Below the pieces are notes generated by a model. It was not told the origin of the DNA and made no database searches. It saw only the letters and a program-made list of their open reading frames with translations. Of a stretch of DNA of 64,000 nt, positions 40,579-62,520 are shown piece after piece. Numbering within the stretch: position 1 is the stretch's first letter; each line of letters begins with the position of its first letter. Origin of the DNA: Patescibacteria group bacterium (lineage in GTDB: Bacteria > Patescibacteriota > Saccharimonadia > CAILAD01 > JADZBC01); assembly GCA_052034495.1 (NCBI GenBank), contig JBPOIL010000010.1:14457-78456 (forward strand). Reading direction: 5' to 3'. Position numbers and translations under genes: made by a program.

Positions 40579-40797
40579 GCTAAATAAAAGCAGCCTAGCA
40601 AAGCTAGACTGGATAAGTGCTGATAGTGCTTCGAGCTCGCGGGGAGGATCTCCCTCCCCGCCGCTCAAGTACTGCATGAACCGTGCTTCAGCTGATGCTG
40701 CTTTGCCGAAGCCACTCCTCCTGAGAGGATGCGTGCAACAGGGAGTACCCTACTGCAACGACGACTGCCGCGATCAACCCGATCGCCGCCCAGCGCT

Positions 40798-41229
40798 TCA
40801 TCCCAGCCTGCCGAAAGCTTCGAGCCCAGCGGTGTCGGCTGCGGCCGGGGTGGACCAACTCTTTGGCCTGGCCAGGCCACCCTGCTTTGCCGACCTGGCT
40901 GTACAGCGCTTGCCCTCCAGCCTCTTCTGGGCGGCACCCTTGGCGTCGCTGTAGATCTTGATGAGGAGGAAGTCGAAGAGGACCACCACCCCAGCAAGCA
41001 GCTTCGGGTAACGCCTGGCGAGACGCAACACCGGGCCGGCCGTGACGGCCAGAACACCAGAGAAGGCGCCGATGCCAACCCAGACGATCTTGCTGGGGTT
41101 GTCTTCGGTGTAGACCCTCCCGTGGGCAGCGGCCTCCCGCTTTGCCGACGCATCGCCGAACTTGGCGAAGAGCCAGAACAGGGTGGCCCCCACCAAGCCA
41201 CCCACTACCAATTGCTGAGACTTCCGCAT
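40798..41229 (-). CDS. Hypothetical membrane protein (three transmembrane helices) in a high-GC islet
   Basis: High-GC ORF. Overlapping alternative frames look non-protein. A GC hairpin gcggggagg-atct-ccctccccgc at 40640-40661 lies downstream. Confidence 0.4.
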   Translation of the reverse strand: MRKSQQLVVGGLVGATLFWLFAKFGDASAKREAAAHGRVYTEDNPSKIVWVGIGAFSGVLAVTAGPVLRLARRYPKLLAGVVVLFDFLLIKIYSDAKGAAQKRLEGKRCTARSAKQGGLARPKSWSTPAAADTAGLEAFGRLG

Positions 41230-42874: not shown

Positions 42875-43129
42875 TTAACGACGAGTTTTGCGCGAGTTTG
42901 ATGGAAAGAACTTCTTCACAAGGTCGGCCAACATTATAAGTGGGCTTGCTGTGTCCCGAACCGCCCCACTGACCTCCTGGAGGTTGTCTAGGATTTCTCC
43001 CATTTGTGCCGGTACTGTCTTCATATCCTTCATAAACCGAATAAGTAATGTTGTGGCAATAATTGCCAGCACCAAGAAGACTGCGAGAGTTATTGATAGG
43101 ATTACGACGAGTATTTGGAAAGCATTCAT
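42875..43129 (-). CDS. Small membrane protein (DUF948-like)
   Basis: N-terminal transmembrane helix, then a coiled region. Followed by the bidirectional terminator at 43188-43211. Confidence 0.5.
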   Translation of the reverse strand: MNAFQILVVILSITLAVFLVLAIIATTLLIRFMKDMKTVPAQMGEILDNLQEVSGAVRDTASPLIMLADLVKKFFPSNSRKTRR

Positions 43130-43238
43130 ATCTATATTCTATCAGATTATATGGCCTTTGTCAATGCTTAAGATCTGACGTAACTTTAAAAGGCGCCCGA
43201 GGGCGCCTTTTAACTAAGCCGTGTAGATTTACACTGAA

Positions 43239-43640
43239 CTATTCTACTACTTTGACCTCATCGCCGTGAACGGTAAGAGCAAAGATTACCAATACACTAA
43301 CTGCGATTGTGATAACCGACCAAATTGGGTAGATGTTGACTGATGCCAAGTTTGCAGCTGCGCTACCAAGTGCAATCAATACACCAACTACGCGAGCCCA
43401 AGCGGAACCCTTCATAACACCAAAGCCTGCTAAGAGAACAGTTAGGCCCAAGAGGAAGTAGGTCCAGCCCCATGTGCTAAAGTCGAGCAAGAGCAGCTTT
43501 GACTCTGTAGTAACGAGCCAATCGCTGTTGAAGAGGACTGTGAGTCCGGCGATCATTTGGAAAGTACCAAGCATGGTCATCATGAAGCCTGCGAAGAAAA
43601 TCCAGCCGACCCAGCCAGTAACGTTATTTTTAGTTGCCAT
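43239..43640 (-). CDS. Hypothetical integral membrane protein
   Basis: Four predicted transmembrane helices. Length 133 aa. Confidence 0.5.
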   Translation of the reverse strand: MATKNNVTGWVGWIFFAGFMMTMLGTFQMIAGLTVLFNSDWLVTTESKLLLLDFSTWGWTYFLLGLTVLLAGFGVMKGSAWARVVGVLIALGSAAANLASVNIYPIWSVITIAVSVLVIFALTVHGDEVKVVE

Positions 43641-44036
43641 GATAAAACTTCTTAATTACCCTTTAATTGTCCTCCTGCCCTTGGTATCTTGTCAATAGTA
43701 TGGTCTAGCTATGCTTCTGTCGTGGTGTTGTAACAATGTAGATAAGCGCCACGAAGGCCAATAGTACAAGAATAGTACAAACAATACTGAGTGGCGTTTG
43801 GTCCGGCCAGAACGCAAGGTATAGGGCGGACAGAGCAGCTGCGGCGCCATAAAGATACTGACGAGCGGCAACGTTGCAATTCCTTTTGGCATGCTGAGCG
43901 CCGGCACAGTGCTCTTGGCACGAAACCTAGGCCTGTTTGCATCTAACTCTTCCGCCACTGGAATCCTCTTGCTCCTTATCGGGCTTGGCATTTTGGTAAT
44001 TGCCGTATCCCCCAAGGGCAAACCACAAGACTAGAC

Positions 44037-44471
44037 TTATTCGCCGGCTTTTAGCTTTTGTTTGCGTTCGCGTAGCTTTTTCAAGTTCGTAACATTTGGT
44101 ATGGGTTGAGTCTTTATACTTAGGTCTGGCACTTCTTTAGAAAACCCAAGTCTTGCCATACCTATAAATGCCCCGATAGTGAGCCAGGTCGCGGAGTATG
44201 CAAAGCTCTTGCCGAATGCGCGCCCTAATCGCTCTGCAGTGGCGAGCGAGTAAACAAACCCAACGTACGGAACGAGGGCATAGAAAAACCAGTGTCGAGG
44301 TAGGCCTACAGATGCCATCAGCGCCATGAAATTATATCCAGGTACAAACGCCTGCCACCAAGGAGTCTGTAATTTACGTAGCACAGCAGCCAAGCAGATG
44401 CAGTACCAAAAGTAAGCCACGAGAATAATCGCTATCACAATCATGCCAAATTGGGCTATAGCTTCACTCAT
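44037..44471 (-). CDS. Hypothetical integral membrane protein
   Basis: Three to four predicted transmembrane helices. Length 144 aa. Confidence 0.5.
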   Translation of the reverse strand: MSEAIAQFGMIVIAIILVAYFWYCICLAAVLRKLQTPWWQAFVPGYNFMALMASVGLPRHWFFYALVPYVGFVYSLATAERLGRAFGKSFAYSATWLTIGAFIGMARLGFSKEVPDLSIKTQPIPNVTNLKKLRERKQKLKAGE

Positions 44472-44510
44472 GTCTATATCGTAGCACAGAGGCTCATTAT
44501 GAAGCGCAAG

Positions 44511-45281
44511 TTATGGGCGCAACGTACCAAAGAACACTTGCCAGGCGAGTGCTGATTTGGCAACTAGGCTAAGAATTATATACACGCGCTCACCATACAG
44601 GTAGTCCTTCCATTTTCCAACTTGCTTGTACTGCAGGAACATATTGATCGCAAAGATGTTAAAGAAGGCAAAGATCGAAACGTAAATCCAGTAAACAAAA
44701 GCGGGGATGTTGCCACTGCCGTAGGTGTTGCTCGCCCAGAATGAAGTAGCAACGATTATCCATGGAACTATGCCGGCAATACAACCAACGACGAAACTAA
44801 CCCACTTAGTCTTTTCTGTAGTCTGATTGTGAATCTCCATCACCAAGCCCATCAGATTCATGACCGCGACAAGCGCAAATATACCGATTAAAAGCGAGAG
44901 GTCGTATATGCCGACCAGGAGCGAAATAGCCACCATCATGGTGCTAGCAGATAACGAGTATTCGATCCAGCGAGCTCGGTTGATACCTTTGCCAAGGTCC
45001 TTGTTATAACGCTTATTGTAAACCGTAGCGATTATCAGGTGCGCCAATGATGACATTACCAGGAACGCAACCACGAGGTATGCTAGCGGGACATCAAAGA
45101 GGGTCTTTGTAGCAGACTCTAAGTTTTGAGTCTGCCGGTTGAAAGATAGGAAGCTCGTGGTAACAGGCAGTAAAAACTCTTTGCTCAAGAGCAAGATAGC
45201 CAAGGCCTGGACCGCGTGCAACGCAGCCATTTTAAAGTTAAATGATCTCAGCCCTGCTTTCGTAATCTTTTTTCGAGCCAC
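44511..45281 (-). CDS. Heliorhodopsin
   Basis: Seven transmembrane helices. Strong similarity to heliorhodopsin 48C12 in RWIEYSLSASTM, VGCIAGIVPW and YLYGERVYIILSLVAKSALAWQVFFGTL. The retinal Schiff-base Lys in LVAKSA is present. Confidence 0.85.
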   Translation of the reverse strand: MARKKITKAGLRSFNFKMAALHAVQALAILLLSKEFLLPVTTSFLSFNRQTQNLESATKTLFDVPLAYLVVAFLVMSSLAHLIIATVYNKRYNKDLGKGINRARWIEYSLSASTMMVAISLLVGIYDLSLLIGIFALVAVMNLMGLVMEIHNQTTEKTKWVSFVVGCIAGIVPWIIVATSFWASNTYGSGNIPAFVYWIYVSIFAFFNIFAINMFLQYKQVGKWKDYLYGERVYIILSLVAKSALAWQVFFGTLRP

Positions 45282-45776
45282 TTCGTAATCTCCTTATTTA
45301 GGATGATTATAGCATAACGCCTATGCTAGCGGTTGCACGTAGTGTTCTATACCATACTGTTAGGCCGGCCATGAAAGGAGTCGAGTTGCCGAATAGGATA
45401 GCCAAGCGGCACCTGGTGCCAACTCACGACAGTCCGCGAACGTGGTGTCAAATGGGATCAGGCCACGTTCACACAACTGAAAGCCCATCTGGGGCAACAT
45501 GCAACGGGTGTCTCAAGGCGTATTGGAGGACGGTAGTACCAGATCCAGCTGTCATTACAGACCTGCTGCTAGCACTCCACCCCAACAACTCAGACCCCAT
45601 GACCTCGTGCCAGCGTGTGCTCTACCAAGTACTAACTGGTCACAAGCTCCCAAATGCCTGAACTCACATCGACGTGGGTTCAGGCATTTCCCTTTATCTA
45701 CTTTTTTGTTTCAGTTTATCGCAGTGTTTCCTTGTAAATTACCTATTTAACAGATTGTATTTAGTGCCAATAAGCA

Positions 45777-45805
45777 TTGACAAAATACTAAATTTGTGCT
45801 AATAT
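45777..45805 (+). promoter_or_regulatory. Consensus sigma-70 promoter TTGACA-N17-TAATAT for the high-GC operon
   Basis: TTGACA at 45777-45782, a 17-nt spacer, TAATAT at 45800-45805. AAGGAG lies 7 nt before the TTG start at 45873. Confidence 0.65.
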
Positions 45806-45872
45806 TCTTGGGTTACCTGGCTTCGAACCAGGAGCACATCACATCCAAGAAGCATACCAAGGAGAAGGTGCC

Positions 45873-46502
45873 TTGCAGGCAACCGACCAGTCCACATCCA
45901 CCTCGCGAGCACTCGTGCTCGCCGACAAGATCCTGCCGGCCATCATGGACCCGGCGCAGTTCCCGCAGATCGCGGGCGGCAAGTCCCAGACCGACAAGAT
46001 CAACCTCGCGCGCGACGTGGCCGACATCGTCGTTCGTCGCAACGCCGACGAGAGCCAGGACGAGGGCTTCGCCCTCACCCTGGTGACCACCATGGACGAG
46101 TTCCCCAAGAAGGCTTCCAAGGCTGCCGTCAGCCTGCTGCTCGACACGGGGATGAGCTCGATGGAGGTGCACGGGGCGATGAAGTTCGCCACGGAGCTGG
46201 ACGTCAGCCTGGACTTCGCCATCACGTGGATGAAGTACTGGGACGTCACCCTGTCCGACGAGGACGAGGTGTCAGCCTGTGCGGACTCCACCATCGAGCT
46301 GCTCAACGCGCAGCCGCGCGGCGTCGGGATCAACGCCCAGGGCAAGCTCCAGGGCGGGACCCGTCCGCGGAACCCGCACTCGGTCCCCGACCCGGGGCAG
46401 AGCCAGGACCGCGAGCAGATCCTGCTCACGGCCCGCCAGCTCGGCGAAGACCTCAACAAGAGGACCCTCGACGAGCTGGTCGACCACTTCGGTGGCTCCT
46501 GA
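45873..46502 (+). CDS. Hypothetical protein (high GC), first gene of a two-gene operon
   Basis: TTG start with a good ribosome-binding site. 209 aa, no recognizable domain. Its stop overlaps the next start (TGATG). Confidence 0.5.
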   Translation: MQATDQSTSTSRALVLADKILPAIMDPAQFPQIAGGKSQTDKINLARDVADIVVRRNADESQDEGFALTLVTTMDEFPKKASKAAVSLLLDTGMSSMEVHGAMKFATELDVSLDFAITWMKYWDVTLSDEDEVSACADSTIELLNAQPRGVGINAQGKLQGGTRPRNPHSVPDPGQSQDREQILLTARQLGEDLNKRTLDELVDHFGGS

Positions 46503-47431
46503 TGGCTCGCCTACAGAACCCCTTCTTGACCCTCGGGCTCACCCCCGCAGTGGTCAAGAAGGCCAAGTTCGAAGGCGCCATCGCCATCGCCAAGGTCATG
46601 TACCTGCAGAACAGTCGCCTTCACCACCCCGACACGGGCGGTGACAGGCGGCTGTTCGAGGCCGTGGCCGAGGCGTGGGAGCTACTCAACGGCGAGATGG
46701 CACAGGCCTTCTACGACGAGTACGTCTCGTCGCAGGCCGCCAAGCGGGCAGAGTCAGCAGCCCAGCTCCGCCTCGAACATGAGGCCGAGCTGAAGCAGTG
46801 GCGGGACGCCCTCGAGCGCACGCTCGAAGCGCCCCACCGTCAAGGAAACGTGTTCAACCCCACGGCAGGCCTTCGGGTCCTGCTGAGGGGCAAGCACTCC
46901 TTCCTGGAGCTGACGTTCGAGGGCGGCAAGCTGGCAGTACACACGCATGACCAGCTAGACCAAGAAGAGATGCCCTCCACTGTCAAGGGAGGCATGTCGG
47001 CCTACTACTACTCCAACGGGGAAACCCTGAAGAGTCATGGTGGAATCGACGGTGACGGCAAGGAGCTGGAAGCCGACGAGGGCCCAACCGACCTTCGGGA
47101 AGGATGGTACCAAATCGGACCAGTCACGGACGAAGGGACCAATCTCTACTCCCCGCTGGAGCCTTCGGGCAGAAAGCAGGAGAAGGACGTCTCGCCGTTC
47201 GTGCTGATCAGGGGCCACGCCACACGGGTCGCAGCCGACATCGGTCGGCAGCGTAGGCTCTCGGCAGGCGAGGACGATGCGTCCATCGCCGGCATCGAGG
47301 TCTCAAGTCTCGTGAGCAACCCTCAGCTCCTCAGCTTCGAGTGGAAGGAGGGCGCAGCCCTACTGGCCATCACACCGGGCCAAAGGATCGACATCCTCGG
47401 CACGGTGGTTGGCATCTACGCGCCGACCTGA
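46502..47431 (+). CDS. J-domain (DnaJ-like, HPD motif) protein with a ~240-aa C-terminal domain of unknown function
   Basis: MARLQNPFLTLGLTPAVVKKAKFEGAIAIAKVMYLQNSRLHHPDTGGDRRLFEAVAEAWELL has helix II, the HPD loop and helix III spacing of a J domain. The table ORF starting at 46226 overlaps the upstream gene and is an over-extension. Confidence 0.6.
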   Translation: MARLQNPFLTLGLTPAVVKKAKFEGAIAIAKVMYLQNSRLHHPDTGGDRRLFEAVAEAWELLNGEMAQAFYDEYVSSQAAKRAESAAQLRLEHEAELKQWRDALERTLEAPHRQGNVFNPTAGLRVLLRGKHSFLELTFEGGKLAVHTHDQLDQEEMPSTVKGGMSAYYYSNGETLKSHGGIDGDGKELEADEGPTDLREGWYQIGPVTDEGTNLYSPLEPSGRKQEKDVSPFVLIRGHATRVAADIGRQRRLSAGEDDASIAGIEVSSLVSNPQLLSFEWKEGAALLAITPGQRIDILGTVVGIYAPT

Positions 47432-47463
47432 GCTGAGCTCTCATGCTTCCTGGGATGTGATTC

Positions 47464-47541
47464 CCGGGGACGCCCCTAAAAAGGCGTCCCCGGTTTCCCA
47501 AGCAATTATCTAAAAACCACCTCAAACACGAGGTGGTTTTT
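47464..47541. terminator. Tandem hairpins ending the high-GC operon
   Basis: A GC hairpin ccggggacgcc-cctaaaaag-ggcgtccccgg (47464-47493) is followed by the bidirectional terminator aaaaaccacctc-aaacac-gaggtggttttt (47512-47541). Confidence 0.75.
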
Positions 47542-47567
47542 GCTTCATAAGATATTAAATACCTAGC

Positions 47568-47909
47568 TTAACAACGCTCATCGCCCCATACACTTAAATC
47601 TTTAATCACTTTGTGAAGCGAGCGGCCCTTTTCGGTAAGAGTGTACTCAACCTTAGGTGGCACTTCGGCATACACCTTCTTCGTTATAATCTTATCCTGT
47701 TCAAGCTGCTGTAGGCGCAAGGCCAGCGTACGAGGACTAAGGCCTAAATCATCCTGCAATTCCCCGAAGCGCTTAGTGCCATCAAACAAACTATACAGAA
47801 TCATAAGCGCCCATTTGCTGCCAATTATCTTGAGAGTCTTGGCAAGACCGCAGTTAACATAGTCTTTCTTTTGCTCTGGTTTGGCTGATTTTTGGGTTGC
47901 TTTCATAGC
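47568..47909 (-). CDS. HxlR-family winged-helix transcriptional regulator
   Basis: CGLAKTLKIIGSKWALMILYSLFDGTKRFGELQ is the HxlR/MarR-like HTH. Divergent from the FMN reductase gene. Confidence 0.8.
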   Translation of the reverse strand, partial: AMKATQKSAKPEQKKDYVNCGLAKTLKIIGSKWALMILYSLFDGTKRFGELQDDLGLSPRTLALRLQQLEQDKIITKKVYAEVPPKVEYTLTEKGRSLHKVIKDLSVWGDERC

Positions 47910-48018
47910 CGAATTATAACACAAAACTATAGCATGATACTATACTGTTTGTAACTGCTTTACATTGTATAGTTATTACTATAGACTTTATACTATATAA
48001 AATATAGTAAGGAGAAAT

Positions 48019-48537
48019 ATGAAAATACAAATTATCACCGGATCTGTTCGTAAAGAAGCGCTAGGCGCAAGCGTAGCCAGCTGGGTTGTAGAGGTTATAA
48101 ACAAAATCGACAATCTTGATGTCGAGCTGCTGGACCTGCGAACATACGACCTCCCCTTATCTCTCGAGCAGAATGCCGACACGGTAAAGTGGAACGAAAA
48201 GCTGTCTGAGGCCGATGCCTATGTGCTCATCACGCCGGAGTACAATCACGGCTACCCTGCTGCGCTTAAAAACGCCTTGGACCACAGCCACGCATGGGAA
48301 GGCAGGCCCGTGCTATTAATCGGCTACTCTGTAGGCCCAGCTGCCGGAATCCGTGCCGTAGAGCAATTACGACCAGTAGTCAGCGAGCTTGGCATGGTGC
48401 AGCTAAAGTACGCCCTGCAACTCCCGTCTGCGCAAGACACACTCGCTAAAGATTCCGAGATAAAACAGCAGCTCGGCGAATCTCTTGTCCGCTCAGTCGA
48501 GGACTTGAAAGACTTGGCGTCTAGACTAAGCCGCTAA
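48019..48537 (+). CDS. NAD(P)H-dependent FMN reductase (flavodoxin-like fold)
   Basis: MKIQIITGSVRKEALGASVASWV... and LITPEYNHGYP motif. Confidence 0.8.
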   Translation: MKIQIITGSVRKEALGASVASWVVEVINKIDNLDVELLDLRTYDLPLSLEQNADTVKWNEKLSEADAYVLITPEYNHGYPAALKNALDHSHAWEGRPVLLIGYSVGPAAGIRAVEQLRPVVSELGMVQLKYALQLPSAQDTLAKDSEIKQQLGESLVRSVEDLKDLASRLSR

Positions 48538-48575
48538 CGCTTAGTTCGCTCGGCTTTGTAGAGTATAATTACGTT

Positions 48576-50078
48576 ATGAGCAAACTTCTCCGCGAACATG
48601 ACGACATGATCAACGCAGCCTTAAAGAAGGCTTCGGATCTAGGGGTTTACCTAGTGTTGAGAGTTAACAAGAATGAACGCATCTCCCTTGACTGGAAAGA
48701 TGGTGGCGTTGAGTCCGTTTCTATTGGGGATAAAACAGGGGTCGGGCTATACACGTTTACGGAGTCTGGTCATGTCGGCTTCGGCTCTAGCAACCTAATA
48801 AGCGAGGCCAATATCGTCGCTCTGGTAGAGAGTACTGCCGCCATCGCCAAAGCAAATGAACTCACAGGTACTGACAGCGCCAAAGAAATATACGGCCTAG
48901 CCAAACAAGAGAACCTTGGTGAAGACGGCCTCCACTATAATACTGTCGAGGTAGCTTCAATCGACCAGAGTGACCTGCAAAAATACTGCAAGAAGATCGA
49001 AGATATCATCTTGGCGAACGGCAAGGACGTACGCCCGATCATTAGCACGAGCTACGAGCAAGTCCAGTGGCGAATTCTACGTAGTGACGGGACTGACGTC
49101 GACTTTGCCCTGCCCTACGCCCGTGCCAGAATCAGTATGACGCTGCGCAAAGACGATGTCTCGACTCGAGGATTCGTAGCCCTATTCAAACCAAGCCTGC
49201 AAGCACTCTTGGACGACCTAGGAACACCGAGTGAACTCATAGCCCGCGAAGTTGCAATGATGCGCGACCAACTGAAAGTCGGCCCAGTCCAAGATCCTGG
49301 TACGAACAAGCCCGTCTTGATAGCTGGCGATCTAGCCGGAACGTTGGTACATGAAGCTCTGGGGCATCCGGCCGAATCAGATGCTGTTGCTGAAAACGCA
49401 AGTGTGCTTGGCGATGAAAACAGCCAGTTTACAAAAGGGGCTCTAGTCGCCGCCATAGGGGTTACTGTCGTTGATCACGAAGAAGGACTAAACCACGGCT
49501 TTCATCCGTACGGCACGTTCGGGAACAAGCGCGAACCAGTAACAATTATTGACGATGGCATACTTAAAGAATCACTAAGTGACATATTTACAGCGGCAAA
49601 GTCCGGTGTGGCAAACAAGAACACCGAACGGAGCGAAGACTATAGCATGGTCGCAATCCCGCGCATGTCCACCACCTACATTAAGCTCTCTCCCGAGCTG
49701 CTTATAGAAACTGACCTAGCGAGTACTGAGCCACAAGCGGTCCAGGCTGCCCTAAAGAAACACGGCATATTTAAGAAATACCCGACCATCCACTACCTTA
49801 TTGGTTTTAGGGGTGGTTCAGTCTCGCCAAAAACTGGAACATTTATGTTCGGGTCAGGCTACACTTACGAGCTTAGTGAAAAAGGAGCAAAGGCAGTTAA
49901 GCCAGCTTCATTCAGTGGTGATGTCCTTGGCGCACTTAAGTCAATTGAGTTTGGTGCCGGCAAACTCACGACGGACGACATTGGCTACTGCGGTAAATCT
50001 AGTCAGCGCGCCTATGTGAGTGATGGCGGTCATGAGCTCATATTCTTTGCGCCAACCAAGCACGTGGGGATAGCATAA
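48576..50078 (+). CDS. tldD: TldD-family metallopeptidase (U62)
   Basis: HExxxGH zinc motif VHEALGHPAESD. Length 500 aa. Paired with the downstream TldE/PmbA-like gene. Confidence 0.85.
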   Translation: MSKLLREHDDMINAALKKASDLGVYLVLRVNKNERISLDWKDGGVESVSIGDKTGVGLYTFTESGHVGFGSSNLISEANIVALVESTAAIAKANELTGTDSAKEIYGLAKQENLGEDGLHYNTVEVASIDQSDLQKYCKKIEDIILANGKDVRPIISTSYEQVQWRILRSDGTDVDFALPYARARISMTLRKDDVSTRGFVALFKPSLQALLDDLGTPSELIAREVAMMRDQLKVGPVQDPGTNKPVLIAGDLAGTLVHEALGHPAESDAVAENASVLGDENSQFTKGALVAAIGVTVVDHEEGLNHGFHPYGTFGNKREPVTIIDDGILKESLSDIFTAAKSGVANKNTERSEDYSMVAIPRMSTTYIKLSPELLIETDLASTEPQAVQAALKKHGIFKKYPTIHYLIGFRGGSVSPKTGTFMFGSGYTYELSEKGAKAVKPASFSGDVLGALKSIEFGAGKLTTDDIGYCGKSSQRAYVSDGGHELIFFAPTKHVGIA

Positions 50079-51364
50079 TGGAAAAGATGATTGAAGAGCT
50101 GGCATCTAAGCTCAAGGCGGATCCGTCAATCTCAAAGTACCAACTGAGTCACAGTGTAAACCGTACAGTCAGTGGCGGCTTCCTTAATAATGCTGTTGGC
50201 GGCATATATAGGCCTGTCCAGGTATGTGATAAGTCGGCCATGTCATACCGGGTTGAGTTTGCAGATGGCCAGGCAAGTAACGGCGGCATGCCGGCAAGCA
50301 CAGAGATCAAGCAAATAATCAAAGTGATCAACCAGGGCAAGCACAAACCGACTGAACAAATCGAGATCGCGCCTAAACTAGATACTATTCCGAACATCAA
50401 GCTCATGGATACCGAGCTAGCTGCCAAGATTCAAGGCGAGCCTGATTTTATTAGCCAATCTGTCAAGGAACTCCAGAATAACCATAATTTCGAAGAGATA
50501 GAAAATACTGAGGGAGAAATAGAAGCGACGCATGGCATGACGAGGATCGTGAACTCGAACGGTCTAGACATTACATCTGAGGGCACCAAGTATTCGTCCT
50601 ATGTCTCACTTAATGACCGTATTGGTTACGCTGAGTCGACACGAAGGCTGCAAGACCCTCGAGCTATGCAGAACTATAGCAACCACTATACCGAGATTGC
50701 TCTTGCCCTAGAATCAAAGCCGGCCGAGCTAGCTTCTAACACATACCCGGTACTCTTTTCTTCAAGCACTGGCTGGAGCATACTGGGTGCGTATTTGCGC
50801 TCAAATCTGAGTGGATTTAACCTTGATGCCGGACAAAGCCGCTTCACACTTGATGAGCTTAAGTCTCACAAGCAAATTGCTCACGATGGTTTTAATTTAT
50901 CTTACAACCAGCTCGTGGACATGGACCCGTACAGCTTTAAATTCGACGGCGAAGGCATTCCTGCCCAGAAGTTTGAGCTTATAAAAGGCGGTAAACTTGT
51001 TGATCCTATTTGCGACCTTAAGTCGGCCCATAAGCTGGGTCATGTGCCGCGCTCGCTCGGCGGGCTAAAAACCAATCTTGTGCAGGCGACTGAATATGAT
51101 GAGTTCAAGAAGGAAAAGCCTACTTTCCTGCTGGTCTTTGGACTTCTCGGCCTTCACTCAGTAAACAACGTAACTGGTGACTTCTCCCTCCCATCAGACA
51201 ACATACTTCTCGTGCAGGACGGGAAGATTATTGGTCCAGTCAATGGAGTTTTTAGCGGCAACTTCTTCGACATTCTCATGCAGCCTTCAACTGGCTTCGT
51301 AAACGCTCCACATCTGTTCGACTCACCAGCCCTTACCTTCGAAACTCAAGTAACGGTAAAGTAA
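50078..51364 (+). CDS. TldE/PmbA-family protein (U62 partner, no HExxH)
   Basis: U62-like fold, similar in length to TldD, immediately downstream with a stop/start overlap. Confidence 0.75.
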   Translation: MEKMIEELASKLKADPSISKYQLSHSVNRTVSGGFLNNAVGGIYRPVQVCDKSAMSYRVEFADGQASNGGMPASTEIKQIIKVINQGKHKPTEQIEIAPKLDTIPNIKLMDTELAAKIQGEPDFISQSVKELQNNHNFEEIENTEGEIEATHGMTRIVNSNGLDITSEGTKYSSYVSLNDRIGYAESTRRLQDPRAMQNYSNHYTEIALALESKPAELASNTYPVLFSSSTGWSILGAYLRSNLSGFNLDAGQSRFTLDELKSHKQIAHDGFNLSYNQLVDMDPYSFKFDGEGIPAQKFELIKGGKLVDPICDLKSAHKLGHVPRSLGGLKTNLVQATEYDEFKKEKPTFLLVFGLLGLHSVNNVTGDFSLPSDNILLVQDGKIIGPVNGVFSGNFFDILMQPSTGFVNAPHLFDSPALTFETQVTVK

Positions 51365-51550
51365 CCCGAATAGGAGAAGGCCCAGAGTCGAAACCCTGGG
51401 CCTTATTCACCCTCCTTCGATGCAGGTCTATGACCCGCTCAGATAGCCGTCGCTCGGCTAGCACACTATTCCCTTGTGCTAGGGTCGCTGCCATTATGTT
51501 GCCTGGCTGCAGCGAGGTGATTCTTCCGAATCTACCACGGGCCAAAGCCC

Positions 51551-51868
51551 TCAGAAGCGGCTGCTGCACTCCTTGGGGAGCATCAACACGTCGCCCTTGC
51601 TGAACTGCTCCTTGCCGTAGACCTCACTGCGCTGGATGATCAGCCGGCGCCACGCCTGGAGCGACTCGCGCCCCGGCTTGGTCGTCTTGGCGAACTCGTC
51701 CATCGTCAGCGGCGTCTGCAGCGTCACTGCCGCTTCGCAGCCGTAGCGGTCGTTCAGCGACTGGCCGTTGAGTGAGTGGCTCACGCCACCGCAGCCGGCC
51801 AGCACGAAGACGAGGAGGATTGCCGCAGTAACCGCGCGGCGCCGATGAGTGGTGATGTGTGTGTTCAT
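51551..51868 (-). CDS. LysM-like small lipoprotein, paralog 1 (high GC)
   Basis: Signal peptide with lipobox LAGC. C-terminal ...WRRLIIQRSEVYGKEQFSKGDVLMLPKEC resembles the end of a LysM motif. Paralogous to 57370..57678. Confidence 0.5.
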   Translation of the reverse strand: MNTHITTHRRRAVTAAILLVFVLAGCGGVSHSLNGQSLNDRYGCEAAVTLQTPLTMDEFAKTTKPGRESLQAWRRLIIQRSEVYGKEQFSKGDVLMLPKECSSRF

Positions 51869-53462
51869 CTCGCTACTGGCATTACCAGCAATGAGATGAA
51901 CACAACGCTCAACCGAATTTCAACTCCTGTTTCGCCATAACTTGGCTCATCGGTGCAGATCACTATCTGCAGACAGGGTCCCTCCAAGGAGCACGTCCTG
52001 CTCCCTGTAGGGATTTACGCATTGCCCGATCGGGCTTGAAGGCCACTTCGCGCTGGCCTGCTCTCTTTTTGTGGTCATGAGCTAGACCGTTGCGGTGCCT
52101 AGAAGGCTTCTTTTTCTCGCCAACTATACTTCTGTTGTCAGGCCGTCGCTACGGCCCCGAAGCTCCTACCGGCGGCGGCGTGGGTTCGGCGGACCGAACG
52201 CCTCGTCGTAGCTGATGGGGTCCCCCTTGAGGTCTTCCGGATCCTCATCCGTCTCCCAGCGCCCAAACAGGACATTGCGAGGATCGAACGATGCACCTTC
52301 ATGCTCTTCTGAACTACGTGGCATAACCGCCCCTTGCTACGGAGTTGCGATTCAACTCCCCGACGGGAGGCACCCGCCTCTTACCTCCGGCTGGGGAGTT
52401 GAATTGTTAAAGTCTGTAAAAGTTCTCTGATAGTTTCGTCATTTCTGACTCATCAGCTCGGACATACATCCGAGGACTATCTACTCACGAACCCTTAACG
52501 GGCTCGCGAGCGACCCTGGGGAGCCTCTGCACGACAGCGCAAAGTCTACAACCCAGGTAAGGTTTGCCTAGCTTCACTCGACCGAGTGACCTAGAGCGGC
52601 TTACCTTCTGCCGCGGCGTGATTGCGTTCGCCTTAGAGGGCATACCGGTTTTCAGGCCGTGTATGTCCGGGGTAGCGAAACGCACTTTTAGCTAGTGGAG
52701 TTAACCCCGGATCACTTGTTGGTCTCCCACCACTCTCGTGGTCGCGCGTCCCGCTTGGGACTACACGTCGGGGTTTGTACCCGCAGGCTGATCCAATCTC
52801 CTCTCCTGTGCATACCCCTTTCTCCGCGCCGCGGAGGGTTTGGACGGGCCGCCCTCATCGCTCGATCGCGACATGCACTTTACTAGCATCGAACTGTGGC
52901 TGTGATTGGCGGGGATGCTTCCGCGCAATCACTTTGCTAAGGTCTATCCAGGTAAGCTGCGGGTAGCAACCTTACTGGACTCCTTGGCTTCTAGGTACTA
53001 CGTAGCTCTGGGAGGATCTGGTACCTCAACCGGAGCCGGGGTTGTCATGGCCGTGCTTTCGCTCGGCGCCCCTATTCCCTAAGGGCACGTGCCATACGCG
53101 CCCACTTTCGTCCACAATCCTCGCTCGCATAGGCTGGCAAGGAAACTCCCGAAGGAGCGCTGTCCGTGAACATTTGTTGGCCTCAACAGCCAGGGTGCTG
53201 GCGTCCTGTCATGCTTGGTGTAAATATTTACAGAACCCAGCGCCTTGACTGTCGATAACCTTTGACGTTTATTTTTTGAAGTTCTACGCGCTCTTCAGCT
53301 GCACTGTCGAGAATATTACACGGTTGTTTATTTTTTGTCAATACTTTTTGTCACTATATTGCAAACATTATGCAATATTATCTTGATCTAACCTGTAAAA
53401 TACTGTTGAACTTTCCAAACACTTAAGCATAAGCCTGTTGGGTACTTGTAGGTTTTTGTAAC

Positions 53463-53485
53463 AAAAAACGCCCTTAAGGGCGCTT
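53463..53485 (-). terminator. Intrinsic terminator on the minus strand
   Basis: The minus strand reads aagcgccctt-aagggcgttttttg. Confidence 0.55.
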
Positions 53486-53887
53486 AGAGTGAGAATGATA
53501 TCTGTGATGCCAGGGTGGCCGACCGATCCCTCGCGGGAAAGGCCGGCCACCCACGTGGCGCAGAGCTGTGTCGTTCGGCGCTGGACGCACCGGCGAGAAA
53601 GCTCTGTGAGCACGGAGGCTCGTAGTTCCGAGCAGTGGTTGCTCGATTGCGGCCTGGGCGCTGGGCCCTGGCTACATCCGGTGATGAGGACGATCACTCG
53701 CCCTCCTCCTGGTTGTTGTTGGCGGCTAGATGCCGCCACCGATGCGAGCGGTCATGGTAGACCTCCCTGTGTATGACGGGCTTGCGCCATCTCGAGACGA
53801 TCCCGAGATACGGCAGCTATGCACGCATCATGTGCACTGCCGTCAGTCAGTGTTGATAATAGCAGATTTAGCCATAATTGTCAAGCT

Positions 53888-54649
53888 TTATTGACGTTTT
53901 TGGTTATTCCAGGCGAGCTCGAACAGCTGTCTTAATGCGGCTGCGATCTCTTTGCTTTCAATAATTACGCTAATGGAGTCATGTTCCCCGTAGGTGCCGA
54001 TAGCAACGCCTTCTTCGTAGAGAGCAATGTCGGCCGAAATCGGTGTATCCAGCTTAGACGTCTCCCTCATCAAGCTCTTATCCGTGTTCAGGTCCCCGAT
54101 AGTTGAGTAGTAGAACATCTTACTTGATATCTTTTTCTTTAGGCGCTTTGTCGGGTTGGCCTTCAACGCATCCGGAAAGAGTTTAACGACTTCGTTATAG
54201 TCAGAGAGGGCGTACACGGAAGACCCAGTTCTAGCCTTCCTGCGGAGGTAGCCATCAATGGCGACTGCACCTTCCTTACCGCGGAAAAACCTTACCTCTG
54301 GAGCGTCAGAAGAGCCGCCGTGCTCCTGCTGCTTTAGACTTGGCATTAAGCTCTTCAATTCACTCTTTTTTGCCTCAATACTTGTCTTCTGGCCTTCCAG
54401 ATATCGTTCTAGAGCCTCGGGGGGTTCGGCAACGAAAACAGTTTTTTTACCCTCTGTAGACTGGCTAACCATGCCCATCCCGGCAAGCTCATCGAGAATT
54501 ACATAGGTGGTAGCACGGTTTACTTCGGCTTGCTGAGCTATCTTTTGCGCGCTTGCTGAACCTAGAAAAAGCGCAGCCACGTACACACGGGCTTGCTTGT
54601 CGGTCAATCCAACAGATTGTAGTTTGGTTGCGAGTTCGATTATTTGCAT
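53888..54649 (-). CDS. TrmB-family transcriptional regulator, paralog 1
   Basis: N-terminal TrmB HTH LGLTDKQARVYVAALFLGSASAQKIAQQAEVNRATTYVILDEL, plus a C-terminal effector-like domain. Confidence 0.75.
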   Translation of the reverse strand: MQIIELATKLQSVGLTDKQARVYVAALFLGSASAQKIAQQAEVNRATTYVILDELAGMGMVSQSTEGKKTVFVAEPPEALERYLEGQKTSIEAKKSELKSLMPSLKQQEHGGSSDAPEVRFFRGKEGAVAIDGYLRRKARTGSSVYALSDYNEVVKLFPDALKANPTKRLKKKISSKMFYYSTIGDLNTDKSLMRETSKLDTPISADIALYEEGVAIGTYGEHDSISVIIESKEIAAALRQLFELAWNNQKRQ

Positions 54650-55064
54650 GCCCTACAATATACTATATTTGTCAAAATTTGTCAACATAATATAATTCTA
54701 ACCTGTACAGAGTGTCATAATGATGTTAGAATAGGCTGTCTCTGATGAAAGGAGATCACCGTGGGGAGCCTCCCCGCCGTAACCAAACCCGCCGGCCAAC
54801 GAGTGGCCTGCATCAACTTCAGAACGCAGATGGCAGCAACGCTGTCGAGCACTCCTTCTCGAGGAGATCCACCCAGCCCCTCAACGCTGGAGCACGTCAG
54901 CTCTTGTGGCTTCTGCCAGCTCGAACGATCAGGCCTTCTGAGGCTCAACTGATGCCCAGGGCGAACAAAGCCCAATATATGCCACCTACTACCCTTCCCT
55001 GGGTGGTAGGTGGCATAAGCATTTTGTGATACTATTCAGGGTGAATAGGAGGCATGTACCAATG

Positions 55065-56234
55065 CTAGAAAACAGCTCAAAAGGGGGTGAACCCCTCTCA
55101 TTTAATCCTCAAGCCAATGCCGAGATCATCAACGACGCACTAAAAGACCCTACCTACGACCCAGACGAACTCGAGGGGCTCACCAAGGAGGCTACCGCCG
55201 GCATAGGGGATTATCAAAGAAGCCAGGAGTTTGCAGACCTTACGGCAGAAGACGAAGTCACATCCATGGCGCATGAAACAATAACAAGCCTTACCGAGAT
55301 AGCATCGGACGCTGGCAAGACTCTCAATGAGATGCTTTGCGACCCTGCATTTACAGATAAAGTCCTAAGTGGTGAAACCGCCGGCATGGACCCCCGTGAC
55401 AGAGTTCGTCTGCTTGGAATAATCGCCCTGACTGCAAAGCCCGCCGGCCAGTTCTACACTGAACAAACAGTTATTAGCCGTAATGATGAAACACCAGCGG
55501 GAAAGTCTTGGCGCAAAGCAGTCAACTCGCTCCGCTCGTTCGCATACGACGAACCTACGGCAGCTAGATTTGAGGAAGCTAGTGGCGATAAGGTAGCGAT
55601 GCAGAAACTCGAAGACAGGGTGCGAGCTGCTGCCCAGGCAAGATACTGGTTAGCCAACCTAACAGAAGCTACACACACTACTCAACCGCCAGGAGACACC
55701 CAGAAGGGGCTGCAAGAAAGAGTCGAAGCCTCCACAGCAATTGACCTAGCTGACTTCATGCAGATACCCATAGGTGAGCTTGATTTCACGGTTCTCCCAG
55801 CTGGTAGTGGCGAAACACGGGCCAGCGGATCATCAGAGGATCGCGCCCATGCCGACACAATCCTCCGCGAAATAGACCCAGCAAGGATAGCTCTAATCAA
55901 AGAGTTAATCGGTATGTTCCCCGATAAGAACGGCCGCGTATACCTCTCGAGGAAACGCGATAAGAACGGGGAGCTCCACCGGAGCGTGCAGCTAGTGACT
56001 GTTTTTGATATCGACGACGCGCACCAAGTAGCAATGGCGGAGCGTCCAGCTGGCCATATTAGGAATAATGAAGCAGCAATCTATATCGTAAGTGAGCTCG
56101 TAACAGCAGGTACCTGGCAGGAAGTGCTGGCAGTGGAAAGAAAAGAGATTACAGGCTACGGTGCCGAGAAGGTCGTGCATGCGGGCGATTGGGAGAACAG
56201 AATAAGGAATAGACTCCGAGAGATATTGGTATAA
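55065..56234 (+). CDS. Hypothetical protein (~390 aa)
   Basis: A ribosome-binding site precedes MLENSSKGG. No recognizable domain. Preceded by a 16-bp-stem palindrome. Confidence 0.5.
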   Translation, partial: LENSSKGGEPLSFNPQANAEIINDALKDPTYDPDELEGLTKEATAGIGDYQRSQEFADLTAEDEVTSMAHETITSLTEIASDAGKTLNEMLCDPAFTDKVLSGETAGMDPRDRVRLLGIIALTAKPAGQFYTEQTVISRNDETPAGKSWRKAVNSLRSFAYDEPTAARFEEASGDKVAMQKLEDRVRAAAQARYWLANLTEATHTTQPPGDTQKGLQERVEASTAIDLADFMQIPIGELDFTVLPAGSGETRASGSSEDRAHADTILREIDPARIALIKELIGMFPDKNGRVYLSRKRDKNGELHRSVQLVTVFDIDDAHQVAMAERPAGHIRNNEAAIYIVSELVTAGTWQEVLAVERKEITGYGAEKVVHAGDWENRIRNRLREILV

Positions 56235-56285: not shown

Positions 56286-56375
<90 letters not shown>

Positions 56376-56408: not shown

Positions 56409-57185
56409 CTATTTTCCAGCTTTACCGGCCCGCAAACCATCCCTGACAAGTCCAAATATCTGTGTCATAGCCTCGGCAATTTGTGGACTCTCTATAATGG
56501 TGCCAATCACTTCCTCGCCGTATGAGATTAGCGCGGTTTTATTGCCGTAAACATACATGTTCACCGGAGCAGTAAATGCCTCCCTGGGTGCCCAAGTCAT
56601 TTCCCTGAGCATTCGCTTGTCATTCTCCTGCCCATAGTGGATGTTGTCATCCTCGGCAGGCTCAATACCGTGGGCCTTAATCCCAAGCTTTGCACGCTGC
56701 TCCATGTGCTTATAGAGATCCTTACCAAGCACGTTAAAGTCTGCATCAGAGCGAATAAAGTAAATGTCCTGCGCCGTACGTCGCTGATCTTCGTACATCT
56801 TCATAATACCTTCTTTACCCTGAAAGAAGCGTACACCCGGCTGATGCTGGTAAGTATAGAAGTAATTAAGTAGCTGGGGCATACTGTCGCGCACCTGCTT
56901 TTCAGTACTCATTACATCTTTACGCTTCTGCTCTATCAAACGTTCAAGTGCTGTCGGGTTGGCGGGCCTATATAGCAGCTTCTTACCGCTCTCGTCCTTC
57001 TCAATAAGCCCCATGTCTACCAGGCGGTCGAGGACCATATATGAATTGGTGCGTGTTTCGCCAACCTTCTCGGCTAGCTGTGGTGCTGGTAGCGAGCCGA
57101 ATTTGATCAATGCTATGTAGGCTTTGGCTTGGCTTTTGGTCAAGCCTATTTGAGTGAGCAGCTCTATATTCATAGAGTTTATCAT
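56409..57185 (-). CDS. TrmB-family transcriptional regulator, paralog 2
   Basis: LGLTKSQAKAYIALIKFGSLPAPQLAEKVGETRTNSYMVLDRL HTH. Architecture matches the 53888..54649 paralog. Confidence 0.75.
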   Translation of the reverse strand: MINSMNIELLTQIGLTKSQAKAYIALIKFGSLPAPQLAEKVGETRTNSYMVLDRLVDMGLIEKDESGKKLLYRPANPTALERLIEQKRKDVMSTEKQVRDSMPQLLNYFYTYQHQPGVRFFQGKEGIMKMYEDQRRTAQDIYFIRSDADFNVLGKDLYKHMEQRAKLGIKAHGIEPAEDDNIHYGQENDKRMLREMTWAPREAFTAPVNMYVYGNKTALISYGEEVIGTIIESPQIAEAMTQIFGLVRDGLRAGKAGK

Positions 57186-57369
57186 AGCAAAGATTGGCTA
57201 TTTTGTCAATCCTATTTTGACTATATAGTTACCTTTTCTTATCTGTTGGTCAATATAACGTATATTATATATTGACTATTTAGGCCATTTATTGTATACT
57301 TCTCCAGGCTCAAGCAACACGGCTAGAGCCCGGGGAACACCACCCCGCCCGCTCCCTAAGGAGAGCACC

Positions 57370-57678
57370 TTGAAGACCACGACCACCCACCCCCGTAAGC
57401 GCTGGCTCGCCACCGCAGCCCTGACCCTGGCCGCCCTACTCGGCGCCCTAGGACTCAGCAGCTGCGCAGAGAGCACGCGAGACGCCTACGCCTGCAACAC
57501 CGAGGTGACGATCGACTACACCAAGCCGGTCAAGCTCAGCGACTTCGCGCAGGACACGGACCCGCGGGGCAACTGGCGAGAGTGGAAGCAGCTCCTCATC
57601 GAGCGCAACCACCTCTACGCGGACACCCTGAAGCCCGGGCAGAAGGTCAAGCTGCCTCAGGCCTGCAAGAAGGTCTGA
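57370..57678 (+). CDS. LysM-like small lipoprotein, paralog 2 (high GC)
   Basis: TTG start after AAGGAGAG. Lipobox LSSC. C-terminal WREWKQLLIERNHLYADTLKPGQKVKLPQAC is homologous to paralog 1. Confidence 0.5.
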   Translation: MKTTTTHPRKRWLATAALTLAALLGALGLSSCAESTRDAYACNTEVTIDYTKPVKLSDFAQDTDPRGNWREWKQLLIERNHLYADTLKPGQKVKLPQACKKV

Positions 57679-57807
57679 GGGGAGGAGCACAAAGGTAAAC
57701 GGGGCGGTACCTACAAACCCGCCCCCTGACTCGGAGAGTAACGCGCTCTCCCTGACGATGACCGCGCACGGTCGAAAGTCAGCACCGCACCCCACAAGGA
57801 GCAAACA

Positions 57808-58050
57808 ATGCCAGACTATGAAGCAGAAGCCAGGGCTGCTGAGCTCGAAGGAAGAGCTGAAGCAGCCCGCATCAGAGCGCGCGGCTATGAACAGCAAGCT
57901 GCCTACGCGCGCGGAGACCATCTGCGTGAAGCCACTCGCAGGCGCGAGGAGCAAGCACACATCCAGCGCGAGGTAGCTGCCGGACGTATGTGCCCTGGCG
58001 GCTGCGACACCTACTCCGGCGGATGCCGCATCCACGCCGACTCCTGCTAG
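57808..58050 (+). CDS. Small Cys-rich hypothetical protein (80 aa, high GC)
   Basis: A ribosome-binding site AAGGAGCAAAC precedes the ATG. Helical Arg/Glu-rich N-terminus. C-terminal CPGGCDTYSGGCRIHADSC. Confidence 0.4.
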   Translation: MPDYEAEARAAELEGRAEAARIRARGYEQQAAYARGDHLREATRRREEQAHIQREVAAGRMCPGGCDTYSGGCRIHADSC

Positions 58051-58111
58051 GCAGTAGCGCTCAAGGTTCCAGGGAGGTCCTTATAAAATCTCCCTCTTAC
58101 TTATTTTGGAG

Positions 58112-61879: not shown

Positions 61880-61906
61880 TTAGCACTCTAATGCTTTGAG
61901 TGCTAA
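61880..61906 (-). promoter_or_regulatory. CIRCE operator (HrcA-binding site) upstream of groES
   Basis: TTAGCACTC-N9-GAGTGCTAA is a perfect match to the CIRCE consensus. Confidence 0.85.
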
Positions 61907-62378
61907 ATATAGTGTACAAAATGACGGGCTTGAGCGTCAAGACCCCTGCCACTTGCATCTCCGGCCTTGGAGCTCCTGCCTTCCGCGACATTCGAATATC
62001 CTGGACGTGATTCGGAGTACTCAGAACAGAAAGACCGAGGATTGTTTGAGCCTGTTTCAGGCGAGTCCCGCAGGACGCTTCTGTTTGAGTACGGAGAATC
62101 ACCACCAAGAGATGAGCCCCATGTCGCAAATACTTTTGACTACTTTTGGTATCTTCAAAAGTAGTAATGAAGAATGAGCTATCTTGTTTTAAACTGGATG
62201 CCCTTTTGAAAGACCCAAAAGGGCGAAAAGGTCTTCCGACCACGGGTTCGCATCTAGGTGCGTTCGTTCACTCATGAAACTAGAATGTCGTGCCCACTGC
62301 GAGTTTGAGGACTCTCGTGGTTCACTTGTTCTGGTTCATGAGCTCCTCACTGCCTGATGCTCCAGGGTCGGGGAGCAT

Positions 62379-62434
62379 GCAACTTTCGCTCTTTTGAGCT
62401 CATCAGAATAACCTACAGTTATTGAGTTGCCACC
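62379..62434 (-). ncRNA. Type-III hammerhead ribozyme (candidate)
   Basis: Minus strand: GGUGGCAAC-UC|AAUAAC-UGUAG-GUUAUU-CUGAUGA-GCUC-AAAA-GAGC-GAAA-GUUGC. Stem I is 6 bp with a 5-nt loop. Stem II is 4 bp with an AAAA loop. Stem III is 6 bp including A15.1-U16.1. Cleavage triplet is CUC. Confidence 0.6.
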
Positions 62435-62520
62435 CCAGGCCGAAGCCCGGGATGAGGAGTTTATATGGCTTACTCCTGTGCCTGCGTAGTTCCCGAAGGA
62501 GCTACTTGTTGTGTTGCGGC

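Follow-up and report, generated by a model that had tools for sequence, protein, structure and literature searches.

A probable hammerhead-punctuated RNA operon at the transfer-messenger RNA locus of Candidatus Saccharibacteria

Hammerhead ribozymes of type III cut close to their own 5' edge. The roles of bacterial hammerheads in biology are, to our knowledge, largely unproven. A different group of bacterial RNAs, the large and ornate GOLLD, ROOL and OLE RNAs (0.6 to 1.2 kb), was reportedly described by Weinberg and co-workers in 2009 and 2017, and GOLLD and ROOL are said to lie often beside tRNAs. In prophage regions, clustered hammerheads that flank single genes cut polycistronic RNAs to gene length in vitro (Perreault et al. 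2011, PLoS Comput Biol; PMC3088659). Here we analyse a 2-kb stretch (positions 51870 to 53880) of a 64,000-nucleotide segment of DNA, referred to as the window, from Candidatus Saccharibacteria. The stretch is a composite RNA locus of the minus strand and not one 2-kb RNA. We consider it probable that it gives rise to a polycistronic minus-strand transcript punctuated by hammerheads, at a locus for transfer-messenger RNA (tmRNA, encoded by ssrA) that has lost ssrA itself.

The locus resembles the prophage clusters (PMC3088659) in that several hammerheads of the same orientation lie on a polycistronic unit and bracket a gene or short block, and in the core and three-stem architecture of the ribozymes. 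The proposed role is also the same, namely the conversion of a long transcript into gene-length RNAs, although cleavage is here a prediction. It differs from them in being an ssrA locus on a Saccharibacteria chromosome, with neither integrase nor phage genes in view, and in what surrounds the first hammerhead: upstream stands a large structured non-coding RNA and downstream, in relatives, a tmRNA rather than a protein gene. This large RNA is within the size range of GOLLD, ROOL and OLE and shares with them many covarying helices and a division into one variable and one conserved half. Like them it has an elevated G+C content in a lower-GC genome and, as with GOLLD and ROOL, it is linked to a tRNA-like gene. 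It differs from the three in having no match to an Rfam model at E <= 10, no prophage context in the genes examined, a 3' end that is predicted to be made by a hammerhead, and a distribution so far limited to a narrow clade of Saccharimonadales. Compared with canonical ssrA loci, the window has no tmRNA, whereas a full-length one occupies the same slot, or a position near it, in four related loci (L022, L025, L027 and L031). A literature search revealed no earlier description of ssrA preceded by a hammerhead and a large RNA, and nothing relevant on hammerheads in Saccharibacteria or beside tmRNA.

Related loci L005 to L016 and L022 to L035 were fetched using homologues of a small open reading frame (ORF) of the stretch and of the upstream TrmB-family regulator, and L002 was retrieved using the PmbA gene adjoining the region. 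Seven species have a recognisable locus: the window, L002, L005, L015, L022, L025 and L027. L002 is a contig from a metagenome-assembled genome of an uncultured Candidatus Saccharibacteria and is about 89% identical to the window over 9.5 kb. The order TrmB, gene-poor gap (1.5-3.5 kb), PmbA/TldD is kept in the window, L005, L022, L025 and L027, and in L015 TrmB and the gap are retained and other genes come thereafter. In the distant locus L034 the promoter and a hammerhead are present; a homologue of the 3' domain of the large RNA is not detectable there and no tmRNA was found.

The evidence for the large RNA comes from folding and from comparison of the seven species. The fold z-score is -5.5 for the minus strand and -2.9 for the plus strand. 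In a pairwise alignment with L002 upstream of the first hammerhead (HHR-A), conserved blocks alternate with hairpins that carry compensatory changes. For the conserved 3' domain, RNAalifold predicts 115 pairs from the seven species, with standard pairs in 94% of the cells. Double-sided changes occur in 17 of these 115 pairs, compared with 8.4 +/- 1.8 in column shuffles (0 of 500 reach the observed number) and with 2 to 7 in controls in which the partners were slid by 1 to 3 columns. The central domain exists in two forms, one short (window, L002, L025 and L015) and the other about 330 nt longer (L005, L022 and L027). In the 5' and central part of the short-form species, 14 of 84 pairs are compensatory, including those of a 65-nt hairpin (53251->53187). 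Compensatory substitutions, by which a structured non-coding RNA is recognised, are thus present beyond the controls. Many invariant G-U pairs would become A-C on the opposite strand, and the minus sense is therefore fixed, in agreement with the hammerheads.

Conservation of the 3' domain is stronger than that of the neighbouring protein genes. It includes the invariant loop sequences GGCCUGAAAACC and GAAGGUAAGCC; GGCCUGAAAACC and GUAAGCC are retained in the distant locus L033. With a covariance model built on the 123-nt core, each locus of the seven training species yields a single copy (137-156 bits), and two diverged tandem copies, which are weak and keep the helices, are recognised in L033. 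Weak homologues of the large RNA in L031 and L033 are likewise found by nhmmer.

The RNA appears, from the searches made, to belong to a new and previously undescribed family. When positions 51300-54000 were compared with all 4227 models of Rfam 15 at E <= 10, only the hammerhead was found, with no match to RNase P, signal recognition particle (SRP), 6S or a large RNA. GOLLD, ROOL, OLE, HEARO and group I and II introns, which an earlier, preliminary description of the stretch had put forward as candidates for an Rfam cmscan, were all without a match even at this threshold. The orthologous regions of L002, L005, L015, L022, L025 and L027 gave no known large RNA, RNase P, SRP or 6S at E <= 1. 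Comparison of the 2-kb stretch with phage records by blastn gave no match, and pattern scans of viral contigs with two invariant motifs of the large RNA gave chance matches or none. In metagenome contigs the loop pattern GGCCTGAAAACC-N32-44-GAAGGTAAG has three matches, none with further similarity; the present genomes are evidently absent from this collection, for L005 fits the pattern and yet its source JGI contig was not among the matches. Identification as RNase P or SRP RNA, for which there are short resemblances (UUAACUCCAC and GAAGGUAAGC), was rejected as no covariance model matches at E <= 10, and identification as a tmRNA duplicate was rejected as blastn finds no similarity.

The preliminary description had proposed either a structured non-coding RNA or a heavily decayed pseudogene block. 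The first holds insofar as structured RNAs with compensatory changes are present, but not as a single RNA occupying the stretch. The second would make the stretch a set of pseudogenes derived from high-GC genes gained by horizontal transfer; it is effectively ruled out between 51900 and 53300, and we regard it as extremely improbable overall. The region does lie among GC-rich, foreign-looking genes, and the elevated G+C content reported for it is borne out (0.573 for 51870-53220 and 0.595 for 53461-53880, against 0.514 for the window), the two GC-rich blocks being separated by an AT-rich segment (53221-53460, 0.346). A tmRNA gene has also been lost from the locus. However, no periodicity in G+C content at third codon positions (GC3) exists over 51900-53200, and the substitutions between species are compensatory in helices and do not follow any reading frame. 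The claim that no ORF exceeds about 70 codons is correct for 51870-53360, in which the longest has 71 amino acids (aa), but not for the right-hand 500 nt, in which there are ORFs of 123 aa (53368..53739, minus) and 95 aa (53489..53776, plus) with a lipobox-like VLITGC. These could be taken for gene remnants, but the only protein match of the 123-aa ORF is an unannotated predicted protein of 80 aa (91% identity over 65% of the ORF, on a 2.3-kb contig), the ORF reads through a strong intrinsic terminator, and Pfam and NCBIfam returned nothing for those ORFs that were scanned, namely the small gene and the flanking genes. What the preliminary description missed is the strand, the hammerheads, a 52-codon gene and the identity of the stretch as the tmRNA locus of related genomes.

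The large RNA is preceded by a sigma-70-type promoter at 53341-53313, in which the -35 is invariant and the -10 is TA(A/T)A(G/T)T in seven of seven species. From this position we infer a start near 53306 and a length of about 830 nt. The TTGTCA boxes that had been reported here are real, being the reverse complement of the minus-strand -35 (TTGACA, 53341-53336). The palindrome TTGCAAACATTATGCAA, placed earlier at 53369-53385, also exists; its position is 53359-53375 and it is present in only two of the seven related species. A 9-mer, ACAGGTTAG, occurs only twice in the window (0.25 expected), in both cases on the minus strand: once upstream of the large-RNA promoter (53396->53388) and once upstream of the promoter of the first TrmB-family gene (54698-54706). 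The former copy is kept in the six species whose aligned stretch reaches that far. ACAGGTTAG is a candidate operator for the adjacent TrmB-family regulator.

Three type III hammerheads (HHR-A, HHR-B and HHR-C) were identified in the window. With gathering thresholds, Rfam reports only a tRNA-Ser for the whole window; the hammerheads appear with E-value thresholds. HHR-A has a complete core (CUGAUGA, GAAA and a GUC cleavage triplet). Measured against the core of RF00008 (C3 U4 G5 A6 N7 G8 A9, G12 A13 A14, A15.1-U16.1, H17), HHR-A and HHR-C are complete and HHR-B departs at one position, U4C. Helix III is open and helices I and II are closed by loops (stems of 7, 4 and 4-5 bp), and covariation is seen in stems I, II and III. 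For example, stem II of HHR-A is GUCA/UGAC, GUCG/CGAC or GUGC/GUAC across species and its stem III GAUAG/CUAUC or UACAG/CUGUA, while stem I of HHR-B covaries fully (UGCAGAU/AUCUGCA as against CGCACGU/ACGUGCG). HHR-B itself is not reported by Rfam at E <= 5; its orthologues in L002 (42.4 bits) and L015 (41.5 bits) have the canonical CUGAUGA. The CCGAUGA variant is also found in HHR-A of L027. A descriptor was built from the core, the three stems, U16.1 and any base except G at position 17. Across 163 kb of these loci it recognises 15 well-formed type III motifs, and 20 shuffled windows contain none. Two hammerheads on the same strand are present in L002 and in L015, and HHR-A is present in L022, L025 and L027.

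The surroundings of HHR-A connect the locus with ssrA. In L022, L025 and L027, full-length tmRNA (102-105 bits) is located 90-350 nt past HHR-A and the hairpin that follows it, and in L031 a tmRNA is found close to the TrmB gene. Over an unbroken 1067 nt the large RNAs of L025 and the window share 84.6% identity, and the alignment stops where the L025 tmRNA starts. No tmRNA (RF00023) was found in the 64-kb window by Rfam (E <= 5), by ARAGORN or by blastn with the L025 tmRNA. A tRNA-like domain was likewise not found there, and L002 and L005 have no tmRNA at the orthologous locus. Since in L025 and L027 the tmRNA follows HHR-A and the hairpin and is itself followed by the small gene, the ancestral unit would have consisted of promoter, large RNA, HHR-A, hairpin, tmRNA, small gene and terminator. 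In these two loci HHR-B and the lipoprotein gene that closes the unit in the window are both absent, and the operon downstream is tmRNA, small gene and terminator. By this comparison, the lineage of the window appears to have lost the tmRNA from the locus and to have gained a segment with HHR-B and the lipoprotein gene.

The hairpin directly 3' of HHR-A is kept in six aligned species and lies between HHR-A and the tmRNA in relatives. Its outer stem in L025 carries A-U to G-U and C-G to U-G changes, which allow pairing on the minus strand only. This hairpin accounts for a repeat reported in the preliminary description as three copies of ATTCAACTCC(C/T). Only two exact copies exist, at 52350-52360 (+) and 52394-52404 (-), and both exact ATTCAACTCCC copies are arms of the same hairpin. 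The inverted repeat described as 9 bp is in fact a perfect stem of 12 bp inside 21-nt arms that are 86% complementary. For the supposed copy near 51935, the actual sequence is TTTCAACTCCT (51918-51928), which has one mismatch; five such one-mismatch matches occur where 1.9 are expected, which is the level of chance.

Two loci carry a tRNA-like domain of about 80 nt without the mRNA-like domain. In L015 (6034-6115, 82 nt, 52.1 bits with RF00023) it occupies the tmRNA slot, and in L033 (6837-6914, 44.8 bits) it is elsewhere in the region between TrmB and the hammerhead. Both share the T-arm CCCGGGUUCGAUUCCCGG and are followed within 1-4 nt by an AUG, that of L015 being the start of a small gene of the GPPNPRR family. 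These could be a conserved paralogous element rather than remnants of deletion. Two further candidates for remnants, within the window, were dropped: the segment between the hammerheads has no blastn similarity to tmRNA, and a possible 5' GGGGC remnant matches by eye at only about 9 of 22 positions.

In the proposed mechanism, a short GC-rich unit with its own promoter and terminator comes after the TrmB-family gene, and the promoter at 53341-53313 would then drive one long transcript. This would contain, in order, the large RNA of about 830 nt, HHR-A, the hairpin, the 52-aa gene, a spacer, HHR-B, a hairpin over a start codon and a foreign-looking lipoprotein gene. Cleavage by HHR-A after C52475 would release the large RNA with a precise 3' end (...GAUAGUC) bearing a 2',3'-cyclic phosphate. 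Seven ribozyme nucleotides would stay on the upstream RNA and the body of the ribozyme would remain on the downstream fragment. Because a type III ribozyme cuts near its 5' edge, the action of HHR-A would define the 3' end of the large RNA and at the same time detach it from tmRNA (in relatives) or from the mRNA of the small gene (in the window). Cleavage by HHR-B after C51972 would part a 503-nt small-gene RNA from the lipoprotein mRNA. The hammerheads would thus serve as co-transcriptional punctuation, through which one transcript yields discrete stable RNAs and mRNAs. HHR-A sits exactly where a conserved structured RNA ends on its 3' side, and in sister genomes it precedes the tmRNA; this genomic setting offers a specific role that can be tested.

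The same placement could be read differently. The RNA of about 830 nt might have no separate function and be a long structured 5' leader, through which the genes downstream (at first the tmRNA) are regulated or stabilised and which the hammerhead merely removes. It would share a transcription unit with these genes, no terminator being predicted in between, and is always upstream of the tmRNA or of the small-gene slot; in L005, where HHR-A is truncated, it stays fused to the downstream mRNA. However, its 3' domain is conserved beyond the level of neighbouring protein genes, with the invariant loops kept in L033, it is retained where tmRNA has gone from the locus, and the ribozyme is so placed as to provide a clean 3' end upstream, as expected of a product rather than of a discarded leader. 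We therefore regard a mere leader as unlikely.

The two hammerheads of the stretch also invite comparison with eukaryotic retrozymes and viroid-like circular RNAs, in which a same-orientation pair of type III hammerheads similarly flanks 0.5-0.8 kb. A double cut would excise a 503-nt RNA (52474->51972), which a ligase of the RtcB type would circularise to give a circular mRNA for the 52-aa protein or a mobile intermediate. Type III hammerheads of the same orientation are spaced by 503 nt in both the window and L002 and by 840 nt in L015. In L022 two identical hammerheads, contained in a 69-nt exact repeat, surround one gene, and circular products were raised as a possibility by Perreault et al. 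(PMC3088659). The same authors did not detect such products for the bacterial clusters, however. Unlike retrozymes, which have direct repeats and multiple genomic copies, the HHR-A/HHR-B module is present once in the window, is encoded on a bacterial chromosome and has a conserved ORF, no long direct repeats join its hammerheads and these are not repeats of one another. In L025 and L027 an HHR-A stands ahead of tmRNA and HHR-B is absent, HHR-B of the window is a weakened U4C variant, and the neighbourhood shows no gene for a reverse transcriptase or ligase. A retrozyme or viroid-like module is, on balance, improbable.

Several points weigh against the reading of the stretch as one transcript punctuated by hammerheads. 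The start and the co-transcription of all parts are drawn solely from consensus scans for promoters and terminators. The U4C core of HHR-B in the window is expected to be much less active, and all hammerhead scores are under the Rfam gathering score of 48.5 (43.5 for HHR-A and 35.6 for HHR-C). L005 has no HHR-B and a truncated HHR-A and yet keeps the large RNA and the small gene, from which it follows that cleavage is dispensable in at least one lineage. The covariation derives from only seven closely related sequences and two weak ones, with a shuffle control that ignores phylogeny, and the two forms of the central domain cannot be aligned to each other. Loss of tmRNA was judged within the 64-kb window and the locus. 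As to the scores, the E-values of 1.5e-7 and 6e-4 and the lack of matches in shuffled windows indicate that the shortfall reflects short stem II and loop variants and not chance; judged on core, covariation and null model, the hammerheads are credible. Perreault et al. note that a viroid hammerhead with the U4C change was much weaker in vitro and had, nevertheless, sufficient activity in vivo (PMC3088659).

The large RNA is an added candidate among the few bacterial RNAs above 0.5 kb without an assigned function, and comes from the under-studied Saccharibacteria of the Candidate Phyla Radiation (CPR). We suggest only tentatively, and with somewhat less than even confidence, that it founds a new RNA class of the Saccharimonadales (CPR) with a hammerhead-made 3' end and an ancestral co-transcription with tmRNA. 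If so, its persistence where the locus has been stripped of tmRNA would argue for a cellular role of its own, possibly in ribosome rescue or RNA quality control, and a self-cleaving ribozyme that matures housekeeping stable RNAs would be the first of its kind in a bacterium. In at least three species ssrA appears to have been lost from the ancestral locus, and one may ask whether these episymbionts with reduced genomes have relocated or abandoned trans-translation.

Table 1. Positions in the window of the elements of the locus and of the third hammerhead, with the basis of each assignment
Feature	Coordinates	Strand	Basis and remarks
Promoter-like site TTGACA-17-TATTAT, TG before -10	53856..53884	minus	11/12 consensus matches; starts 4 nt past the TrmB stop codon
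GC-rich transcription unit, about 390 nt	53460..53849	minus	Predicted promoter and intrinsic terminator (stem 53485-53466, U-run)
Large-RNA operon promoter TTGACA-17-TAATAT, sigma-70-type	53313..53341	minus	Consensus scan; conserved in 7 species
Large structured RNA, about 830 nt	52475..53306	minus	Fold z-score, 7-species alignment, compensatory pairs
Large-RNA parts	5' long hairpin 53251->53187; variable central domain; conserved 3' domain 52901->52475, core 52686->52564	minus	
HHR-A, type III hammerhead	52429..52481	minus	Rfam RF00008 match 52482->52428, 43.5 bits, E = 1.5e-7; predicted cut 52475/52474
Conserved hairpin, 12-bp outer stem and inner GGAGG/CCUCC stem	52350..52404	minus	Directly 3' of HHR-A; inverted-repeat analysis
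52-aa protein gene (MPRSSEEHEGASFDPRNVLFGRWETDEDPEDLKGDPISYDEAFGPPNPRRRR), AAGGGG before it	52166..52324	minus	Codon-position substitution pattern
Conserved non-coding spacer, small gene to HHR-B	51978..52165	minus	Near-identical in L002, conserved in L015, partly shared with L005 and L022
HHR-B, type III hammerhead, U4C core CCGAUGA	51926..51977	minus	Descriptor scan; predicted cut 51972/51971
20-bp hairpin, 3' arm holds lipoprotein start codon	51860..51904	minus	Inverted-repeat analysis
GC-rich lipoprotein gene, 105 aa, lipobox LAGC	51551..51868	minus	ORF; GC3 0.92-0.96
HHR-C, type III hammerhead	62379..62430	minus	Rfam match 62431->62378, 35.6 bits, E = 6e-4; descriptor scan agrees

The small gene is, on its substitution pattern, real and under purifying selection. 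Between the window and L005 the differences number 1, 4 and 12 at codon positions 1, 2 and 3, and of 40 codons 11 have synonymous and 4 non-synonymous changes. Homologues ending in GPPNPRRR are present in L002, L005 and L015, and also, in L025 and L027, some 60 nt past the tmRNA. The protein has no match in Pfam or NCBIfam, and an exhaustive profile search of 1.84 billion representatives returned only two related clusters, both from its own clade.

The lipoprotein gene is the last of the unit and is followed by a bidirectional terminator (51378-51420). It had been labelled a LysM lipoprotein, a label that Pfam does not support, as it gives no LysM match. The hairpin that covers its start codon is a candidate for translational sequestration or control. 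A 10-bp hairpin of other sequence is found at the same place in L015 (about 6530-6590), where the start codon is also covered.

The right-hand GC-rich block (53849->53460) is probably a separate unit, either a structured small RNA or a 3' extension of TrmB, and probably non-coding. Its minimum free energy is -190 kcal/mol, as against -146 +/- 6 in shuffles (z = -7.3). The minus-strand terminator that had been proposed here is confirmed as intrinsic, with its stem followed by a T-run. A promoter of similar form, TTGACA-17-TATCAT, likewise comes after the TrmB stop codon in L025 and L005. In L005, L025 and L027 the same promoter and terminator enclose a sequence that is unrelated to that of the window and is alignable among these three. 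The unit between TrmB and the large-RNA promoter contains, in L025 (5790-6290) and L005 (4150-4640), very short ORFs with Shine-Dalgarno-like sequences, MGEGL* and MGEGLFTPA* respectively; these could be leader peptides or chance occurrences.

HHR-C is located outside the stretch, 90 nt past the stop codon of a GC-rich ORF of 486 aa (62521-63981, minus). It precedes a CIRCE element (61880-61907) and groES/groEL, and possibly defines where the upstream mRNA stops ahead of the heat-shock operon. The identical 53-nt hammerheads of L022 (365-417 and 1062-1114, minus), with their 69-nt exact repeat, flank a gene of 192 aa and form the arrangement most like a retrozyme or cassette. Both HHR-C and this pair are consistent with hammerheads being used generally to punctuate operons in these bacteria. 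The idea that hammerheads mark the borders of GC-rich islands was abandoned, there being only three hammerheads and more than 20 islands in the window.

Such islands reach 60-65% G+C in a genome of 51% (for example, 28101-28900, 40601-41200, 45801-47500, 57301-58100 and 62501-63900). No Pfam match was found for the island ORFs tested. They look as if they were acquired horizontally from a high-GC donor; that the actinobacterial hosts of Saccharibacteria were the source is a guess. The two TrmB-family paralogues (53888-54649 and 56409-57185, minus) bracket a tRNA-Ser(GGA) gene (56286-56375) and an ORF of 402 aa (55026-56234, plus), which has a GC-rich leader and a 17-bp hairpin (54978-55017) in front of it. 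In L005 and L015 a single TrmB gene directly follows the tRNA, so that the arrangement in the window looks like an insertion or duplication. A heliorhodopsin gene (PF18761, in the precomputed annotation of L001) lies 6 kb from the stretch (44511-45281, minus). Over 43000-53500 the identity between the window and L002 is mosaic: blocks of 100% (for example, 45900-46400, 47100-47500, 49800-51300 and 52000-52400) alternate with blocks of 60-85%, which suggests recent recombination between strains.

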